Positions 3,972-31,472 of a DNA stretch of 64,000 nt are shown here, piece by piece. A program made the position numbers and the translations under genes. The stretch comes from Escherichia coli (GTDB taxonomy: Bacteria > Pseudomonadota > Gammaproteobacteria > Enterobacterales > Enterobacteriaceae), in assembly GCF_048403405.1 (NCBI RefSeq), contig NZ_CP183129.1. One strand, written 5' to 3'. The first letter of the stretch is position 1. Every line of letters begins with the position of its first letter. The notes below the pieces were generated by a model. That model was not told where the DNA came from and did not search any database. It saw only the letters and a program-made list of their open reading frames with translations.

Positions 3972-4999
<1,028 letters not shown>

Positions 5000-5362
5000 A
5001 TTAATATTAAATCGGATTATTTTTAGCGCTGAATGTGAAATTTAAATAAAAAGGACTCTTCCATGAGTCAAAATCCTTGAAATCTTAAGGGTAAGATAAA
5101 AGGTCATTAGACAGAATGACACGTTTTATTAATAAATAAAGCTATTGTTTCATTCGTGTGTTTTTCTTTACAAAAGTAATCCTTGCTATGGTTGGTTAAT
5201 CATGCGTTAATGGTGTTCTGGTTTGTTACAAAATTATCTGAAGCAGTCATTGTTATAATTTTATTATTTGTACCTCTTGAGATTTCCTTGTTGGTTTTTC
5301 TCTCTGATATTTTTTTTCGGACCATTCTGCCCAAGGGCTAACTTCTTCAAAAGGTAATAATG

Positions 5363-5575
5363 ATGTCTAACAAAATGACTGGTTTAGTGAAATGGTTTAA
5401 CCCTGAAAAAGGTTTTGGTTTCATCACGCCGAAAGATGGTAGCAAAGATGTGTTTGTCCATTTCTCAGCTATTCAGAGCAACGATTTCAAAACGTTAACT
5501 GAGAATCAGGAAGTCGAATTTGGTATTGAGAACGGACCTAAAGGCCCCGCGGCTGTTCATGTTGTGGCACTTTGA
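5363..5575 (+). CDS. cspI: cold-shock protein, CspI-like
   Basis: 70 aa, [43 protein letters not shown]...; long AT-rich leader. Confidence 0.85.
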
Positions 5576-5775
5576 GGTAGATAATATTACAAACCATATT
5601 CACTTTAGATGCCCGTGTTGCCATGGTTCTCAGTATAGAACATCATCTTTTGATGTTTCTGACAGGAATCCTTTCGGGGCAAAATGTATCTTTTGTAAAT
5701 CAATGATGATTACATTTGATAATATTTCACAATACTTAAATGTTAGCCGTCTATCGTTAGATTTAAGAAAGTGAA

Positions 5776-5801
5776 AATGAAGGCTCCTTCGGGAGCTTTT
5801 T
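5776..5801 (+). terminator. rho-independent terminator downstream of cspI
   Basis: gaaggctccttcgggagcttttttt. Confidence 0.55.
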
Positions 5802-5846
5802 TTCTTAGTGTCTAGTCGATGGATACTCACATAATACGGTAACATT

Positions 5847-6077
5847 ATGAAAAAAATAATAGTTTTTTTTAACTCTGAACCAGCAATGGTAGTGCCAGTG
5901 ATGACCGGAGTTAACACCATCATGCGTGAATATCCAAATGGCGAAACAACACACCTCACTGTAATGGCTGCAGGGTTTCCATCTCTGACCGGAGATCATA
6001 AAATCATTTATGTAGCAGCGGATCGACATGTAACTTCAGAAGAAATTCTGGAAGCAGCAATGAGACTCTTGAATTGA
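5847..6077 (+). CDS. hypothetical small protein (76 aa) between cspI and gnsB
   Basis: ORF with upstream purine-rich stretch; occupies the ynfN position of K-12 Qin; identity not confirmed. Confidence 0.45.
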   Translation: MKKIIVFFNSEPAMVVPVMTGVNTIMREYPNGETTHLTVMAAGFPSLTGDHKIIYVAADRHVTSEEILEAAMRLLN

Positions 6078-6249
6078 TTTGATTCTAATGCATTGATAAT
6101 AAATGATAATCATCTTTATCTGTTTGTGTGAAATTTAGACCGTCGTATGTTGATTATTGCGATGTTTCATCTTATCTTTTATACGTTTGCTCCATATAAT
6201 TGACACTACTGTGTACCAGGAAAGTCATAACAGACTAAAAGAGGAAATG

Positions 6250-6423
6250 ATGAACATTGAAGAGTTAAAAACAAAAACAGAAGCAGATATTTCTGAATAT
6301 ATAACAAAAAAAATCATTGAGCTTAAGAAAAAGACCGGGAAAGAAGTTACCAGTATCCAGTTTACTGCACGGGAAAAAATGACTGGTCTTGAAAGCTATG
6401 ATATCAAGATTGATTTAATCTAG
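6250..6423 (+). CDS. gnsB: GnsA/GnsB-family small protein
   Basis: 57 aa, MNIEELKTKTEADISEYITKKIIELKKKTGKEVTSIQFTAREKMTGLESYDIKIDLI; close to recalled GnsB. Confidence 0.8.
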   Translation: MNIEELKTKTEADISEYITKKIIELKKKTGKEVTSIQFTAREKMTGLESYDIKIDLI

Positions 6424-6716
6424 TCTGTTTAGTATTAGCATCAATTTCTCATCAGATGCTATTCAACAATACAAATTACCCATAAACCTCGTTTTTACGG
6501 GGTTTTGTTATATTTAAACATTACCGAATAGGTATAAATCTCGATTGTCGATGGTATTGGTTGTGTGACAATACCTAGTCTTTCCGGTATGCCTGATGAG
6601 AATACAAACGACAGATTATGTAAGGGAAACGCGCTGAATCTTTAACTCTTTCATGCTGAGTGATTTGACGTTATATTTTTAGCCGTAAGTGAAGAGCAAA
6701 CGCATGGAGCGACAAA

Positions 6717-6923
6717 ATGCATAAAGATCAATACACTGATGCCCCCTCCCAGGAGCAGGTTCGTGTAAAAACTATGCTTAATAGCACCATTTCGATGGGT
6801 TACCCGGATGTTGTAATTGCATGTATAGAACATCAAGTGTCTCTGGAAGCATTCAGGGCAATTGAGGCCGCGTTAGTAAAGCACGATAAGAATACGAAGG
6901 ATTATTCCCTGGTGGTTGACTGA
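6717..6923 (+). CDS. hypothetical protein (68 aa)
   Basis: ATG preceded by GGAG; no family recognised. Confidence 0.35.
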
Positions 6924-7286
6924 TCACCATAACTGCTAACCATTCTGACCATTTCACAAGTGACAGAGTCAATATCGTATTCTGTCACTGTCAGGCTAAT
7001 ACAGCAATGCAATTCAACTACAGCAATGCCTCGTATTTAGGTGAATTTACAATATCGTCCAGTTCGGATGCCGGCTGCATTTCTGAAGATAAGGCATTTC
7101 GGTTCTCGTATTTTCCCCTCATGCTCGTCAGTCCTGCGCGTAGTAAGAAACAGGACACTCACACTAATTTGTGTGGGCATGCTGTGATGTCCTTCTGAAT
7201 TATCCCCATGCCATTATGTAAAGCTCTGTTAAAGATGCTCGTCACGGTTGTCAGGCTGTCGGGTCCTCCCAGTGGGGGGCCCTGCC

Positions 7287-7306
7287 ACGGGGCGGGAGCG
7301 TCGCGG
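7287..7306. promoter_or_regulatory. cohesive-end site (cosN-like) for terminase
   Basis: ACGGGGCGGGAGCGTCGCGG closely parallels lambda cosN context ACGGGGCGGCGACCTCGCGG; lies ~185 bp upstream of the terminase small subunit start, as in lambda. Confidence 0.65.
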
Positions 7307-25917: not shown

Positions 25918-26517
25918 ATGCGTAAAGTTTGTGCAGCCATTTTGTCCGCAGCCATCTGTCTGTCCGTATCCGGTGCGCCTGCATGGGCATCTGAACATCA
26001 GTCCACGCTGAGCGCGGGGTATCTTCATGCCTCGACGAACGTTCCCGGCAGCGATGATCTTAACGGGATTAACGTGAAATACCGTTATGAGTTTACGGAC
26101 ACACTGGGGCTGGTGACGTCATTCAGCTATGCAGGAGACAAGAATCGCCAGCTTACCCGTTACAGCAATACCCGCTGGCATGAAGATTCCGTGCGTAACC
26201 GCTGGTTCAGCGTGATGGTGGGGCCGTCTGTGCGCGTGAATGAATGGTTCAGCGCGTATGCGATGGCGGGTATGGCTTACAGCCGTGTGTCGACCTTCTC
26301 CGGGGATTATCTCCGCGTAACTGACAACAAGGGGAAAACGCACGATGTGCTGACCGGAAGTGATGACGGTCGCCACAGCAACACGTCTCTGGCGTGGGGG
26401 GCTGGCGTGCAGTTTAACCCGACCGAATCCGTGGCCATTGACCTTGCTTATGAAGGTTCCGGCAGTGGTGACTGGCGCACTGACGGTTTCATCGTGGGTG
26501 TCGGTTATAAATTCTGA
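25918..26517 (+). CDS. lom: Lom/Ail-family outer membrane protein
   Basis: 199 aa; signal peptide; beta-barrel C-terminal ...GVGYKF; own terminator; classic position after J. Confidence 0.85.
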
Positions 26518-26572: not shown

Positions 26573-26581
26573 GGAGTGGAT

Positions 26582-28987
26582 ATGGCAGCAGTAAAAATCT
26601 CAGGTGTGCTGAAAGATGGTGCGGGAAAACCAATACAGAACTGCACTATTCAACTGAAGGCAAAGCGTAACAGCACCACGGTACTGGTGAACACGGTGGC
26701 CTCTGAAAATCCGGATGAAGCCGGGCGTTACAGCATGGATGTTGAGTATGGCCAGTACAGCGTTATCCTGCTTGTTGAAGGTTTTCCGCCTTCACATGCC
26801 GGAACCATTACCGTCTATGAAGGTTCCAGACCAGGTACGCTGAATGATTTTCTCGGTGCCATGACGGAAGATGATGTCATGCCGGAGGCATTGCGTCGTT
26901 TTGAGGAAATGGTGGAAGAAGCGGCACGCAACGCCGAAGCCGCCTCTCAGAGCGCAGCGGCGGCAAAGAAATCCGAAACTGCAGCGGCATCATCAAAGAA
27001 CGCGGCGAAAACCTCAGAAACGAATGCAGCTAATAGTGCACAGGCGGCAGCGACCTCAAAGACTGCATCGGCAAACTCCGCGACAGCAGCCAAAAAATCA
27101 GAAACCAACGCGAAAAATAGCGAGACAGCCGCAAAGACGAGCGAAACCAACGCAAAGTCCAGCCAGACGGCAGCGAAAACCAGCGAAACGAATGCCAAAG
27201 CCAGTGAAACTGCGGCAAAAAACAGCCAGGTTGCAGCAGCCCAAAGCGAGAGCGCGGCAGCCGGTTCTGCGACTTCAGCAGCTGGATCAGCAACTGCTGC
27301 GGCTAACAGCCAGAAAGCTGCGAAGACGAGTGAAACTAACGCAAAGTCCAGCCAGACGGCAGCGAAGACCAGCGAAACGAATGCCAAAGCCAGTGAAACT
27401 GCGGCGAAAAGCAGTCAGGATGCAGCGGCCCAAAGCGAGAGTGCCGCAGCCAGTTCTGCAAGCGCGGCGGCTGCTTCTGCCACTGCATCAGCTAACAGTC
27501 AAAAAGCAGCAAAAACCAGTGAAACCAACGCAAAGGCGAGCGAGACTGCGGCGGCGAACTCGGCGCAAGCATCGGCAGCAAGCCAGACAGCAGCTAAAGC
27601 AAGTGAAGACGCAGCCAGAGAGTATGCAAGCCAGGCAGCGGAGCCGTATAAACAAGTTTTGCAGCCGTTGCCCGATGTGTGGATACCGTTTAATGATTCA
27701 CTGGATATGATTACGGGCTTTTCGCCATCATATAAAAAAATTGTTATTGGCGACGATGAAATAACAATGCCTGGCGACAAGATTGTAAAGTTTAAACGCG
27801 CATCGAAAGCAACTTACATTAATAAATCTGGTGTGCTGACAGAGGCTGCCATTGACGAGCCACGATTTGAACGTGATGGCCTGCTTATTGAGGGGCAAAG
27901 AACTAACCTGCTAATCAATTCAACAAATCCGACTAAATGGAACAAGTCGTCAAATATGATCTTAAGTGCATCAGGTGTAGATGATTTCGGATTCCAGTAC
28001 GCAAAATTTACATTAAAACCAGAAATGGTAGGGCAAATTTCAGCGATTAACATAGTAACCGTTTCCGGCAGTAAAGGTTTTGATGTAACAGGCGGAGAAA
28101 AGTATGTAACCATATCATGCAGGGTGCAAAGTGGCACTCCAAATTTAAGATGCCGATTACGATTTGAAAACTATGATGGTTCTACCTACACATTCTTAGG
28201 TGACGCTTACTTAAATACGACAGATTTATCTATTGATAAGACGGGTGGTGCCGCTAATCGCATTACTGCAAGGGCTGTTAAAGATGAAGCAAGCAAATGG
28301 ATCTTTTTTGAGGCGACAATTAAGGCACTTGATACAGAAAATATGATAGGTGGAATGGTTCAGTATGCCCCGGCAAAAGGAGTGGGCACTGGCGCGGATG
28401 ATTATATTTATATTGCGACCCCTCAAGTTGAAGGTGGGGCGTGCGCTTCATCGTTTATTATAACAGGCGCATCCCCTGTAACACGCGCCAGCGATATTGT
28501 AACGGTCCCCATTTCTCTAAATTGGTGCAATCCCGCTATTAGTTCATTAGCAGAAGTTAATACCAATTGGGATGAATCGCCAAACAAAGAAGGTAGCGCA
28601 CGTATTCTTAATATTTCCACTACGGGAGATACAACTGAAATTGCAGATGAAAGTTATATGTATTTGGGGTATACATCTTTGGGAGCACGCGCAATCATTA
28701 CAAATGGTAAAGGCACTAAAATAGAATATAAAAGCGTTATAGAACGACCAGAGAGAAAAAGCATTATCGGCTTTAGATTCACAGAAAGTCGAGAATTGTG
28801 TGTTGTGGTTAACGGTAATATTGGTGCTAAGGTAGTTTCTCCTTATAAAAAACACAAATATACAGGAGGCTTCATTAATATTGGTGGTCAATCATCATCC
28901 GGCAACCGTCACCTATTTGGACACGTTCGAAATCTGCGTATTTGGCACAAGGCATTGACTGATGCTCAGATGGGGGAGTCAATCTAA
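26582..28987 (+). CDS. stf: side tail fibre protein Stf with a replaced, low-GC C-terminal receptor-binding module
   Basis: N-terminus MAAVKISGVLKDGAGKPIQNCTIQLKAKRNSTT... matches recalled lambda Stf; Ala/Ser/Thr-rich repeats; C-terminal ~440 aa of lower GC with a possible lectin-like motif. Confidence 0.85.
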   Translation: MAAVKISGVLKDGAGKPIQNCTIQLKAKRNSTTVLVNTVASENPDEAGRYSMDVEYGQYSVILLVEGFPPSHAGTITVYEGSRPGTLNDFLGAMTEDDVMPEALRRFEEMVEEAARNAEAASQSAAAAKKSETAAASSKNAAKTSETNAANSAQAAATSKTASANSATAAKKSETNAKNSETAAKTSETNAKSSQTAAKTSETNAKASETAAKNSQVAAAQSESAAAGSATSAAGSATAAANSQKAAKTSETNAKSSQTAAKTSETNAKASETAAKSSQDAAAQSESAAASSASAAAASATASANSQKAAKTSETNAKASETAAANSAQASAASQTAAKASEDAAREYASQAAEPYKQVLQPLPDVWIPFNDSLDMITGFSPSYKKIVIGDDEITMPGDKIVKFKRASKATYINKSGVLTEAAIDEPRFERDGLLIEGQRTNLLINSTNPTKWNKSSNMILSASGVDDFGFQYAKFTLKPEMVGQISAINIVTVSGSKGFDVTGGEKYVTISCRVQSGTPNLRCRLRFENYDGSTYTFLGDAYLNTTDLSIDKTGGAANRITARAVKDEASKWIFFEATIKALDTENMIGGMVQYAPAKGVGTGADDYIYIATPQVEGGACASSFIITGASPVTRASDIVTVPISLNWCNPAISSLAEVNTNWDESPNKEGSARILNISTTGDTTEIADESYMYLGYTSLGARAIITNGKGTKIEYKSVIERPERKSIIGFRFTESRELCVVVNGNIGAKVVSPYKKHKYTGGFINIGGQSSSGNRHLFGHVRNLRIWHKALTDAQMGESI
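27100..27560. repeat. about 2.4 tandem copies of a 189-bp (63-codon) in-frame repeat inside stf
   Basis: cgcaaagtccagccagacggcagcgaa(a/g)accagcgaaacgaatgccaaagccagtgaaactgcggc recurs at 27151 and 27340. Confidence 0.7.
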
Positions 28988-29268
28988 TGAAAGATTTAAC
29001 ACTCAAATTTGCCGACAGGGCCGACTTTTCGGCCTTTATGGGAAGTATTGGCTATTATAATGACGAGTCGATGCAGGATGATATTCTGATTGATGTGATA
29101 GGTAACGTGTACAAAGAAACCGGAGAGCTGACTGAAGATGGCGAACCGGTATGTGTTAAGGAAGATGGATATTTTGTAAACGTGCGCATCATTAAGGATA
29201 CGCAAATATCGTCATTATTCGATGAATACGTGGTTGCTGTTGAGCATCAACTTCGTGGCTGGATGTGA
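28987..29268 (+). CDS. ORF-A: small acidic protein (93 aa), function unknown
   Basis: ATG overlaps the stf stop (TAATG); about 19 Asp/Glu versus 8 Lys/Arg; no family recognised. Confidence 0.5.
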   Translation: MKDLTLKFADRADFSAFMGSIGYYNDESMQDDILIDVIGNVYKETGELTEDGEPVCVKEDGYFVNVRIIKDTQISSLFDEYVVAVEHQLRGWM

Positions 29269-29277
29269 GGAAGAAAA

Positions 29278-30318
29278 ATGGCTACATCGACAGTAATTCC
29301 TGATGACATCAAAACGCTAAAATCCGACGTTAGCAAATTAAAAAACGATCAAGGAAGCTACGCAACAAAATTATATGTAGACAGCAAAGATGAAATCGTT
29401 GGTGACTGGTCTGCTTCATGGTATCAGCAGGTATTGCCAACTAGCGGAGCTATATTTGGGAGAAAACTCCGCTCAACTCACAGGACGGCAGGTGTTGAGG
29501 ATGCGTATTGCGAACTATACCTCAAAAAATGGATAGACAGTCCAGGTAACGCAATGGCGCGCCTTAACCTGAACGATAACGGGACAAACATTTGCTGGGA
29601 CTTTACCAACCTTTATGGCGGTACGATGATTTTTCCCGGTGACAGCGGATACCTCAAAATGGGTAACTGCCTTATGTCATACAGCAAGCGTGGAAGTAAC
29701 GCGCTTATTAAATTTGATTACACCGACACATTACAGATCAAATATGCCAATCATGGGTCAACCATGACATTAAACACACAGGGAACCGCTTATGCTGGTG
29801 TTACTGCTCAATTGTGGGGCAACTCCAGCCGTCCTGTTGTTTATGAAGTCGGTGTTGATGGTGGCGCTTATATGTTCTATGCGCAAAAAAATACCGATAA
29901 CACCTATATGTTAAGCGTTAATGGTGCATGTCATGCCACCGCATTTAACCAGCATTCCGACCGGGATCTGAAAGACAACATTCAGGTGATCGATAATGCA
30001 ACCGACCGCATCCGTAAAATGAACGGCTATACATACACGCTTAAAGAAAACGGTATGCCCTATGCTGGTGTCATTGCACAGGAAGCTCTGGAAGCAATCC
30101 CAGAAGTTGTAGGTTCCGCAATGAAATATCAGGACGGCGCAAGCGGATCGGAAGGTGAAGAAGGTGAACGTTATTACACAGTAGATTATTCTGGTGTTAC
30201 TGGCTTGCTTGTTCAGGTAGCCAGAGAGTCAGACGACAGAATAACAGCACTGGAAGAAGAAAACGCAGAATTAAGACAAAGATTATCTGCAATTGAGGCG
30301 GCGCTTGCGTCTAAATAA
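29278..30318 (+). CDS. ORF-B: fibre/tailspike-like protein (346 aa) with C-terminal intramolecular-chaperone (peptidase S74-like) domain
   Basis: RBS GGAAG; C-terminal SDRDLKDNIQ...YTYTLKENGMPYAGVIAQEALEAIPEVV...coiled-coil ITALEEENAELRQRLSAIEAAL, the pattern of autoproteolytic fibre chaperone domains; hairpin aggggccgagcgcccc after the stop. Confidence 0.6.
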   Translation: MATSTVIPDDIKTLKSDVSKLKNDQGSYATKLYVDSKDEIVGDWSASWYQQVLPTSGAIFGRKLRSTHRTAGVEDAYCELYLKKWIDSPGNAMARLNLNDNGTNICWDFTNLYGGTMIFPGDSGYLKMGNCLMSYSKRGSNALIKFDYTDTLQIKYANHGSTMTLNTQGTAYAGVTAQLWGNSSRPVVYEVGVDGGAYMFYAQKNTDNTYMLSVNGACHATAFNQHSDRDLKDNIQVIDNATDRIRKMNGYTYTLKENGMPYAGVIAQEALEAIPEVVGSAMKYQDGASGSEGEEGERYYTVDYSGVTGLLVQVARESDDRITALEEENAELRQRLSAIEAALASK

Positions 30319-30360
30319 TATCAAGGGGCCGAGCGCCCCGTTTTATTGGGTAGGATGAAA

Positions 30361-30654
30361 ATGGATATAACACCTTTCCTTCATGCGCTTTGTGCTGTGG
30401 CTGCGCAGCTACTGGTTGGTCTTTTTACCGGGAACTGGGCTTACGGGGCGATAGCCGGTTGTACGTTCTTCATTGCGCGTGAACACACCCAGGCGGAATA
30501 TCGCTGGATTGAAATGTTTGGGCATGGCAAGAGGATTAACATGCCGTGGTGGGGCGGTTTTGATCCGCGCGTGTGGGATGTGGCAAGCCTGATGGATTTT
30601 GCTGTGCCGGTGGTGGCGTGTCTGCTGGTCTGGCTGTTGGTTAATCGTGGGTGA
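30361..30654 (+). CDS. ORF-C: small membrane protein (97 aa; 2-3 predicted transmembrane segments)
   Basis: Hydrophobic stretches ALCAVAAQLLVGLF, GAIAGCTFFIA, VPVVACLLVWLLV; AGGA 5 nt upstream of ATG; start could also be 30346 or 30355. Confidence 0.5.
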   Translation: MDITPFLHALCAVAAQLLVGLFTGNWAYGAIAGCTFFIAREHTQAEYRWIEMFGHGKRINMPWWGGFDPRVWDVASLMDFAVPVVACLLVWLLVNRG

Positions 30655-30664
30655 AAAAAGGTGA

Positions 30665-30784
30665 GCTGTATATGCAACGGAGGAAGAAACCCCGTTGCTG
30701 GAAGCCTGGAAAAAGTATCGGGTGTTGCTGAACCGTGTTGATACGTCAACTGCACAGGATATTGAATGGCCAGCACTGCCGTAG
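30665..30784 (+). pseudogene. tfa: 3-prime remnant of tail-fibre assembly gene tfa (last ~36 codons only)
   Basis: Frame opening right after the ORF-C stop reads [39 protein letters not shown], matching the recalled lambda Tfa C-terminus; no start codon or N-terminal domain. Confidence 0.7.
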
Positions 30785-30881
30785 GGTAAAACATATAAAT
30801 TCTATAATTAGATGTATCTTTCCATTTACGGCAAGGAAGGGGGCTTGGAAGACGTAAAGCATCTCACACCGAGATTATTTT

Positions 30882-31472
30882 TTATATGTCAGGTGTCTGA
30901 AGTTTTGCTTTGGCTCTTAAAATGGTTTGCCGCGAGGTTTTGAATTCCCGGGCAATGGCACTTATACTTACACCTGACTTAATTCGTTCGAATACCACCT
31001 GTTTCTGTTCTTCATTTAACACAGGTGGTCGACCAAAACGTTTCCCTGCGCCCCGGGCTCTTACTATCCCGGAATGAGTGCGTTCAAGTAAAAGGTCTCG
31101 TTCAAATTCAGCGACTGCTGAAATTACTTGCATCATCATTTTTCCTGTTGGACTGGTCAGGTCAATGCCCCCCAATGCTAAGCAATGCACTCTGATACCT
31201 GTTTCGGTCAGTTGTTCCACTGTTTTCCTGATATCCATTGCATTACAACCAAGGCGATCCAGTTTTGTCACAATCAATTGATCACCACATTTCAGGCGAG
31301 CAAGCAACCGGTTAAAACCAGGACGCTCACTGGTTGCTGCTGAGCCGCTAATGTGTTCTTCGATTATTTGCTGAGGTTTGATTTTAAAACCTGCACTTTC
31401 GATTTCCCGGCGTTGATTTTCGGTGGTCTGATCCAGCGTTGATATCCGACAGTAAGCAAAAATTCGAGACAT
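30882..31472 (-). CDS. pinQ: serine recombinase (invertase/resolvase family), PinQ/PinR-like
   Basis: 196 aa; catalytic-region motif YCRISTLDQ; C-terminal helix-turn-helix; same position as pinQ next to tfa and ydfK in K-12 Qin. Confidence 0.75.

Follow-up and report, generated by a model that had tools for sequence, protein, structure and literature searches.

Small, non-structural phage proteins that are encoded beside receptor-binding genes, and that are able to travel with them, include Llp of T5, which is an outer-membrane lipoprotein, and Cor of phi80, N15 and T1, which acts at the outer membrane on FhuA. Other small phage proteins that are dispensable for virion structure sit in the inner membrane: T4 Imm, P22 SieA and HK97 gp15 block genome entry; they are produced early or in the lysogen, and their occurrence is limited to one phage group. 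Here we analyze a gene found in a 64,000-nucleotide (nt) stretch of an Escherichia coli chromosome (contig NZ_CP183129.1; this whole stretch is referred to as the window), which carries a lambdoid prophage at the Qin site. The gene (30361–30654, plus strand) lies directly behind the tail fibre genes of the prophage. It is a functional gene encoding a 97-residue protein of the cytoplasmic membrane. Its family, Ybl63 (PHROG 1443), is large and uncharacterised, and we find the gene as the terminal 'cargo' gene of side-tail-fibre modules in diverse phages of Proteobacteria, among them lambda-like, P22-like and P2-like ones.

The longest open reading frame (ORF) runs from a TTG at 30346 to a stop at 30654 (102 codons), and the likely start is the ATG at 30361, which gives 97 amino acids (aa). 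A Shine-Dalgarno-like AGGA (30352–30355, plus strand) stands 5 nt upstream of this ATG and is kept in the other copies that carry a hairpin in front of the gene (see below). RefSeq marks the identical 97-aa coding sequence (WP_001306187.1) in near-identical genomes. The 294-nt gene is present in 1906 out of 5426 complete E. coli genomes (35%), with a median of 2 and a maximum of 7 copies per carrying genome, and every copy is annotated as 'hypothetical protein'. Among 46 distinct E. coli alleles, the median pairwise ratio of non-synonymous to synonymous substitution rates (dN/dS) is 0.13, indicating purifying selection. Sequence search collected 585 homolog clusters at 90% identity, which span Escherichia, Salmonella, Citrobacter, Enterobacter, Leclercia, Aeromonas and Comamonas, and a profile search collected 426 cluster representatives at 50% identity (the members are 58–146 residues long in all 150 of the 426 that were listed). 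Given this dN/dS value, the number of genomes that carry the gene and the number of homolog clusters, the ORF is more than a chance reading frame. The gap between its stop codon and the 3' remnant of tfa (tail-fibre assembly) is 19 nt, and pinQ comes next; an initial annotation of the window had reported a 97-aa protein downstream of the fibre genes and abutting the tfa remnant, in agreement with the ORF, the RefSeq record and this gap.

The window protein matches phrog_1443 with an E-value of 9.3e-59 over residues 1–96 of 97, and its best AFDB50 structure matches by Foldseek (TM-score 0.92) carry the name Ybl63, which is the UniProt name for the family. Foldseek against AFDB50 returned family members only, plus a few proteins with doubtful DUF (domain of unknown function) labels. 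Searches of the window protein against NCBIfam, PADLOC and PDB sequences gave no match of known function, and Pfam gave no significant match for it or for 46 family members (one of the 46 matches Phage_holin_8 with an E-value of 3.6e-3). A DgkA-like enzyme was considered and dropped, as hhalign was negative, and so was a lambda S-like holin (hhalign probability of 0.8%). A GtrA-type flippase was rejected as well, since the protein has three helices instead of four and neither it nor the 46 members has a Pfam GtrA-like match. A scan of IMG/VR found only near-identical E. coli prophages, and the distant members aligned too poorly for a pattern scan. Literature searches using Ybl63, phrog_1443, the accessions and the phage names found nothing. 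Ybl63/PHROG 1443 is a catalogued but wholly uncharacterised family, and the window gene is one of its ordinary members. In the literature searched, we found no description of the linkage to receptor-binding genes across phage morphotypes, the likely cytoplasmic orientation or the terminator-gated expression.

The hydropathy profile has two hydrophobic blocks (residues 3–39 and 74–96) that flank a polar stretch (40–73), and the AlphaFold2 model consists of three helices (4–23, 26–53 and 74–96) with a mean predicted local distance difference test (pLDDT) score of 92. The initial annotation had put the number of transmembrane segments at two to three, which fits both results, and it had also been right that a classical lipobox is lacking: Cys11 is preceded by H-A-L and is not conserved in the family. 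A signal peptide is absent too, and the N-terminus (M-D-I-T) is without positive charge. Across 145 members that are each less than 70% identical to the others, the near-invariant positions are H8, Q16, G29, R40, E41, Q44, A45, E46, Y47, R48, I50, R58, W72, D79 and P83. The core motif R-E-x-x-Q-A-E-Y-R-x-I prolongs helix 2, a Trp-rich turn (consensus N-M-P-W-W-G-G-F-D-P-R-x-W) leads into helix 3, and a conserved His in helix 1 and a conserved Asp in helix 3 lie at matching depth. The window protein has the full family motif (H8, R40-E41-x-x-Q-A-E-Y-R, R58, W72, D79 and P83).

Among 137 members, the mean number of Lys and Arg residues is 5.4 in the loop 40–73, as compared to 0.1 in the turn between helices 1 and 2, 0.6 in the C-terminal tail and 0.5 in the N-terminal tail. 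By the positive-inside rule, which is statistical, the N-terminus and the conserved basic loop are predicted to face the cytoplasm, and because this rule puts the conserved loop inside, the predicted periplasmic exposure is limited to a turn of 2–4 residues and a tail of 3 residues. We had considered a periplasmic placement of the conserved loop, based on the Arg-rich C-tails of a few chromosomal homologs, and the family-wide counts overturned it. A tandem-dimer AlphaFold2 model (two copies joined by a Gly/Ser linker) has a predicted template modelling (pTM) score of 0.67 and domain pLDDT of about 84; these model scores hint at self-association of Ybl63 without being decisive.

We then looked at where the family members are encoded. 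In E. coli lambdoid phages and prophages, the gene order is J, (lom), Stf (side tail fibre), a 93-aa ORF, either nothing or a short fibre of 234 or 346 aa with an S74-type domain, and Ybl63, which is the final late-strand gene (e.g. phage 21, Perceval and ev087); the gap between the upstream gene and Ybl63 is 12 nt in phage 21. In P22-like Gally and vB_EcoP-611R6, the order is tailspike, (O-acetylase), Ybl63, int, and the Ybl63 gene of vB_EcoP-611R6 adjoins an OafA-type O-acetylase gene. In the P2-like Halomonas phage phiHAP-1, the fibre-assembly gene gp18 overlaps the Ybl63 gene gp19, with the sheath gene next, and gp19 takes the place of Z/fun of P2; in P2-like phages, this slot has been described as a mixed hot spot of cargo and receptor-binding genes (bioRxiv 10.1101/2024.10.15.618418). 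Ybl63 is found between two tailspike genes in Cobetia phage Carin-5, behind a 935-aa S74-type fibre in a Desulfovibrio prophage, behind a 492-aa fibre that clusters with E. coli Stf in a Chelativorans prophage, behind J, fibre and accessory genes in Comamonas and Acidovorax prophages, and one gene away from a convergent tailspike gene in Aeromonas phage 62AhydR11PP. Start/stop overlaps with the upstream fibre or chaperone gene occur in phiHAP-1 (gp18/gp19), in one Comamonas prophage locus (L100) and in two Acidovorax prophage loci (L115 and L135). T1-like HC6 has a truncated Ybl63 remnant behind an S74-type fibre (L093, 3965–4120), and such a truncated and unannotated remnant after the S74-type tail fibre is all that is retained in T1-like HC6, 6947, ST1UNAM, HC8A and PBM-2/3.

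Altogether, Ybl63 directly follows receptor-binding genes in at least four unrelated phage architectures, and it accompanies phrog_1419-type Stf, S74-type fibres, P22-type tailspikes and P2-type fibres alike, remaining 40–60% identical across alpha-, beta-, gamma- and delta-proteobacterial hosts irrespective of the fibre or spike type. The positional analogy to the Llp and Cor genes drawn by the initial annotation is reinforced by these architectures. A comparison of vB_EcoP-611R6 (4830–5288 of its locus, L003) with the window (30165–30654) revealed an identical 190-nt block that contains the last fibre codons, the hairpin and the gene, and that in vB_EcoP-611R6 follows the phage's own tailspike and O-acetylase genes. 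As this block is common to a lambdoid and a P22-like prophage, Ybl63 has been exchanged between phage types along with the 3' flank of fibre genes.

Chromosomal copies that stand alone, away from any phage genes, were also found. Five Aeromonas genomes, representing four species, carry Ybl63 between the genes for pirin and a RIO1 kinase. The gene comes after ligA both in Sphingomonas (one genome) and in an unclassified Pseudomonadota metagenome-assembled genome whose LigA is near-identical, and it lies behind a GNAT gene in Leclercia; in other alphaproteobacteria it lies beside capsule (kps-like), CFA (cyclopropane fatty acid) synthase and PBP1A-like genes. Envelope genes near the chromosomal copies include kps capsule genes, CFA synthase, PBP1A, a GtrA-like protein and lipid A acyltransferases (named by eye from the translations, except for the Pfam-matched ones). 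The upstream regions of the Aeromonas copies contain no recognisable regulatory box. The initial annotation had named homology to a housekeeping membrane protein as a point that would speak against receptor blocking; this holds in part, as fixed chromosomal orthologs, themselves uncharacterised, do exist in Aeromonas and sphingomonads. In Silvania confinis, the chromosomal Ybl63 gene is back to back with a Septu system (L111, about 4900–7300; PtuA with an E-value of 2e-142 and PtuB with 6e-93), and a 1174-aa neighbor is not a J protein but a YdbK-like oxidoreductase, with a porin gene alongside. In Halomonas, one copy (L126) is placed between genes for an HNH nuclease and a cold-shock-domain membrane protein.

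In front of the window gene, a terminator scan found a GC-rich hairpin followed by a T-tract (GGGGC-CGAGC-GCCCC; 30325–30347, plus strand), a candidate intrinsic terminator. Its fold energy of −11.7 kcal/mol is not better than that of shuffled sequences (z of −1.1), only 15 nt separate its stem from the Shine-Dalgarno sequence, and it is present in 27 out of 80 E. coli viral loci, in each case with an S74-type fibre. The nearest plus-strand promoter-like site is within the fibre gene (29968–29997). E. coli LF82 has three Ybl63 copies (in prophages Gally, Perceval and Tritos), and Tritos is 99.3% identical to the window over 2.4 kb, with the same gene order and hairpin, so that the LF82 transcriptome (RNA-seq of Misson et al., tables S1/S4; PMC9928086) offers expression values for the window arrangement. 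The ortholog TRITO_22 has 10.4 normalised reads against a background of 10.3, changes in macrophages by a log2 fold change (log2FC) of 0.2, and is at background in all five RNA-seq conditions (PMC9928086). Upstream of the hairpin, the 346-aa fibre gene (TRITO_21) and the 93-aa ORF (TRITO_20) rise in macrophages with log2FC of 6.2 and 7.9 (about 70- to 230-fold), and Stf (TRITO_19) is listed as up by about 2.5 log2 units (PMC9928086). Most simply, the hairpin would act as a terminator between the fibre gene and Ybl63, because the Tritos fibre genes rise while the gene past the hairpin stays at background.

In Perceval, where Ybl63 (PERCE_24) follows the 93-aa ORF after 12 nt and without a hairpin, PERCE_24 rises with its fibre gene in macrophages (log2FC of 3.0 versus 4.85; PMC9928086). 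PERCE_24 and GALLYPH_17 are under the authors' 5-fold threshold in LB medium, none of the three LF82 copies meets their 5-fold 'moron' criterion, and Gally is reported as moron-free (PMC9928086). A classical moron was accordingly dropped as a description of the gene, as no promoter of its own was found and TRITO_22 is at RNA-seq background in the lysogen. We also note that TRITO_20–21 and PERCE_22–24 rise in LF82 in macrophages with log2FC of 3.0 to 7.9, while Perceval's remaining tail genes (the comparison was made for Perceval) stay near background, with J at a log2FC of only 2.05 and lom falling (PMC9928086); this points to a promoter directly in front of stf and separate from the late operon.

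With these observations, the reading that we tentatively favor, as possible rather than probable, is that Ybl63 is a small ligand-binding, catalytic or transport-type membrane protein that acts on a conserved component of the envelope during lytic growth. In the window arrangement, only antiterminated late transcription would reach the gene past the hairpin, so that the protein would be made during lytic growth. The conserved residues at the cytoplasmic helix ends, together with the basic Trp-rich loop, may then form a ligand-binding, catalytic or transport site; such a site is suggested by charged, His and Trp residues that are invariant across bacterial classes and by the stand-alone chromosomal orthologs. 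Its target would be some universally conserved component of the membrane or of envelope precursors, and the phage would benefit from an altered envelope or membrane state of the infected cell. Conserved polar residues inside helices and 40–60% identity across classes are a poor fit for a fast-evolving blocker of one receptor or one injection machinery. Phages may retain the gene on receptor-binding modules either as a rider on a recombination hot spot or for its effect on the envelope that the fibres bind. Minimal three-helix membrane enzymes and transporters of about 100–120 residues are known (DgkA and MerT), and by analogy of architecture only, Ybl63 shares with them the order of helix 1, short outer turn, helix 2, functional cytoplasmic loop of about 30 residues, and helix 3. 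A more specific version, which we consider unlikely, is that Ybl63 proteins (about 95 aa, and probably oligomeric) form a new class of minimal membrane enzymes or translocators for a universal lipid-linked envelope precursor or an ion at the cytoplasmic face. Phages would carry them as cargo on receptor-binding cassettes, turning off the display of surface receptors or closing the membrane to further genomes, as a broadly portable device for exclusion or envelope remodelling that does not depend on the receptor, and Aeromonas and sphingomonads would have domesticated them later.

Several points weigh against an envelope-acting protein of this kind. No relative of known function was found by sequence or fold, and the biochemical class is drawn from the conservation pattern alone; 97 residues are very few for an enzyme, late expression gives scant time for remodelling the envelope, and outside E. 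coli the gene has no constant partner that we found. The topology of the family depends on a statistical rule, and the Arg-rich C-tails of some chromosomal members point to the opposite orientation. The envelope character of the chromosomal neighbors was judged by eye and without statistics. The RNA-seq evidence comes from one strain, LF82, whose Tritos and Perceval copies are 95.9% identical with an identical run of 83 nt, and ambiguous reads were possibly discarded.

Other functions have to be weighed against the same evidence. The initial annotation had proposed that the protein blocks an outer-membrane receptor like T5 Llp or phi80/N15 Cor, as a new, non-lipoprotein kind of blocker. The position after receptor-binding genes is the sole support for this, and we give it only the slightest chance: there is no signal peptide or lipobox, three hydrophobic helices are predicted to anchor the protein in the inner membrane, the ortholog is silent in the LF82 lysogen (PMC9928086), and conservation of the sequence does not depend on the type of fibre or spike or on the host class, with fixed chromosomal copies. 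The topology prediction called for by that annotation bore out the helices but left almost nothing in the periplasm, and because only these few residues would face the periplasm, a receptor plug of the Llp/Cor type is physically implausible and very unlikely. Ybl63 has no sequence relationship with Llp or Cor that we could find. An exclusion protein of the inner membrane, which would halt later phage genomes at the cytoplasmic membrane and so protect the infected cell or the carrier of a domesticated copy, would suit a small inner-membrane protein with three hydrophobic helices (by hydropathy and AlphaFold2). The hot spot beside receptor-binding genes gathers accessory and defence cargo (e.g. 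phiHAP-1 gp19 in the Z/fun slot), some family members come from large, seemingly virulent phages of Aeromonas and Cobetia (lifestyle judged by appearance), and defence genes adjoin two of the chromosomal copies (Septu PtuA/PtuB in Silvania, an HNH nuclease in Halomonas). Still, we regard exclusion as unlikely. T4 Imm, P22 SieA and HK97 gp15 resemble Ybl63 in being small inner-membrane phage proteins that virion structure does not need, but exclusion proteins are narrow and fast-evolving, whereas Ybl63 spans phages of alpha-, beta-, gamma- and delta-proteobacteria as well as chromosomes, with residues that are invariant across classes whatever the phage type. Its conserved cytoplasmic motif is predicted to face away from the incoming phage, it is silent in the LF82 lysogen with the Tritos (i.e. 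window) arrangement, none of the three LF82 prophages has it as a 'moron', a genome can hold as many as 7 near-identical copies, and PADLOC has no match. PHROG and PADLOC annotation gave no link between Ybl63 and Imm, SieA or gp15, which are set apart here by their descriptions and not by sequence comparison.

A role in lysis timing, as a late antiholin-like partner or a small ion or proton leak that tunes holin firing, draws on the beta-proteobacterial prophages, where holin, endolysin and Rz/Rz1 come right after Ybl63 (with 4-nt overlaps in two Comamonas prophages), and on the place of Ybl63 as the final late-operon gene in the window prophage. The conserved polar residues within the helices (H8, Q16, E41 and D79) and the tandem-dimer model with its pTM of 0.67 would also suit it. 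We nevertheless hold it to be improbable, as each of those prophages has its own full lysis cassette (e.g. a 67-aa holin and a signal-anchor-release (SAR) endolysin in L115), the E. coli lysis genes (essD, lysozyme and Rz) are about 20 kb upstream in the TUM1226 prophage and presumably in the window too, the phage copies are without a charged C-terminal tail (that of the window protein is N-R-G), there is no significant holin match in Pfam, hhalign against lambda S finds nothing, and no lysis genes are near the chromosomal orthologs. Ybl63 as the holin itself was rejected, given the separate holins, endolysin and Rz/Rz1 beside it in Comamonas and Acidovorax and the lack of similarity to lambda S. 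It is highly doubtful that Ybl63 is a helper of receptor-binding proteins, i.e. a membrane anchor whose cytoplasmic loop binds new fibres, spikes or their chaperones: the coupling to the upstream fibre or chaperone gene is tight (12-nt gap, start/stop overlaps), the loop is predicted to be in the cytoplasm where fibres fold, and the gene is co-induced with stf in Perceval, but the upstream proteins (phrog_1419 Stf, S74-type fibres, P22-type tailspikes and P2-type fibres) are mutually unrelated while Ybl63 is conserved, no fibre genes are near the chromosomal copies, and a terminator stands between the fibre genes and Ybl63 in the window arrangement. The GtrA/Oac-type O-antigen conversion genes occupy the same slot between tailspike and int as Ybl63 does in P22-like Gally and vB_EcoP-611R6, and GtrA, like Ybl63, is a small polytopic inner-membrane protein. 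Unlike these, Ybl63 has no Pfam GtrA or acyltransferase match, has three helices and not four, lacks GtrB/GtrC partners, and is unexpressed in the lysogen in LB.

As for the rest of the locus, the right end of the Qin-site prophage is flanked by truncated ydfJ, ydfK, pinQ and ydfI. A near-identical prophage in TUM1226 has the order int, Q-like antiterminator, essD-lysozyme-Rz, head and tail genes, J and side-fibre genes, from which we infer a complete window prophage that likewise has a lysis cassette and a Q-like antiterminator upstream. A gene for a Lom-like outer-membrane protein (25918–26517) lies between J and stf in the window and is missing from the otherwise near-identical TUM1226 prophage. 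Stf (26576–28987, plus strand) matches phrog_1419 with an E-value of 0 and is named 'prophage tail fiber N-terminal domain-containing protein' in RefSeq; its N-terminal half (26900–27650) contains long Ala/Ser/Thr/Lys-rich repeats (AAKTSETNAK...), a region that yields numerous spurious antisense and out-of-frame ORFs. The 93-aa ORF that follows (28987–29268, plus strand; phrog_1361, E-value of 1e-44) is of unknown function. It is the constant partner of phrog_1419-type Stf, with an equivalent place in phage 21, Perceval and ev087; among E. coli phages it is always between such an Stf and the next genes, and a distant phrog_18574 counterpart is similarly placed in a Comamonas prophage. It may be a chaperone for this type of Stf fibre. 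The 346-aa short tail fibre (29278–30318, plus strand) matches phrog_4563 ('tail fiber protein', E-value of 1e-220) and is named 'tail fiber domain-containing protein' in RefSeq; its C-terminus, as assigned by eye without a Pfam run, resembles an intramolecular-chaperone (peptidase S74-type) domain. Downstream of Ybl63, the 3' remnant of tfa (30674–30784, plus strand) is a RefSeq pseudogene in a 99.9% identical genome, and the DNA invertase gene pinQ (30882–31472, minus strand) is an ORF that RefSeq names pinQ as well. The tfa remnant and the intact pinQ (30674–31472) are the relic of an invertible stf/tfa switch, whose fibre genes were replaced by the module of Stf, 93-aa ORF, S74-type fibre and Ybl63. 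Elsewhere in the family, the gene upstream of the Ybl63 member in Aeromonas phage AVP1 (L092, 539–3907) encodes a 1122-aa 'helicase/terminase'; an insert that resembles a homing endonuclease suggests a large terminase split by an intein.

Ybl63 is a widespread protein that is worth simple experiments, with no sign yet of a new mechanism. One third of complete E. coli genomes carry it, frequently more than once, and its relatives trail receptor-binding genes across Proteobacteria. Receptor-binding modules are the parts that phage engineers swap to change host range, and a conserved passenger gene there deserves to be understood. Should Ybl63 turn out to help in lysis or assembly, a gap in the biology of lambdoid phages would be closed. 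If it instead acts in exclusion or envelope remodelling whatever the receptor type, it would be a new kind of phage–host interface.

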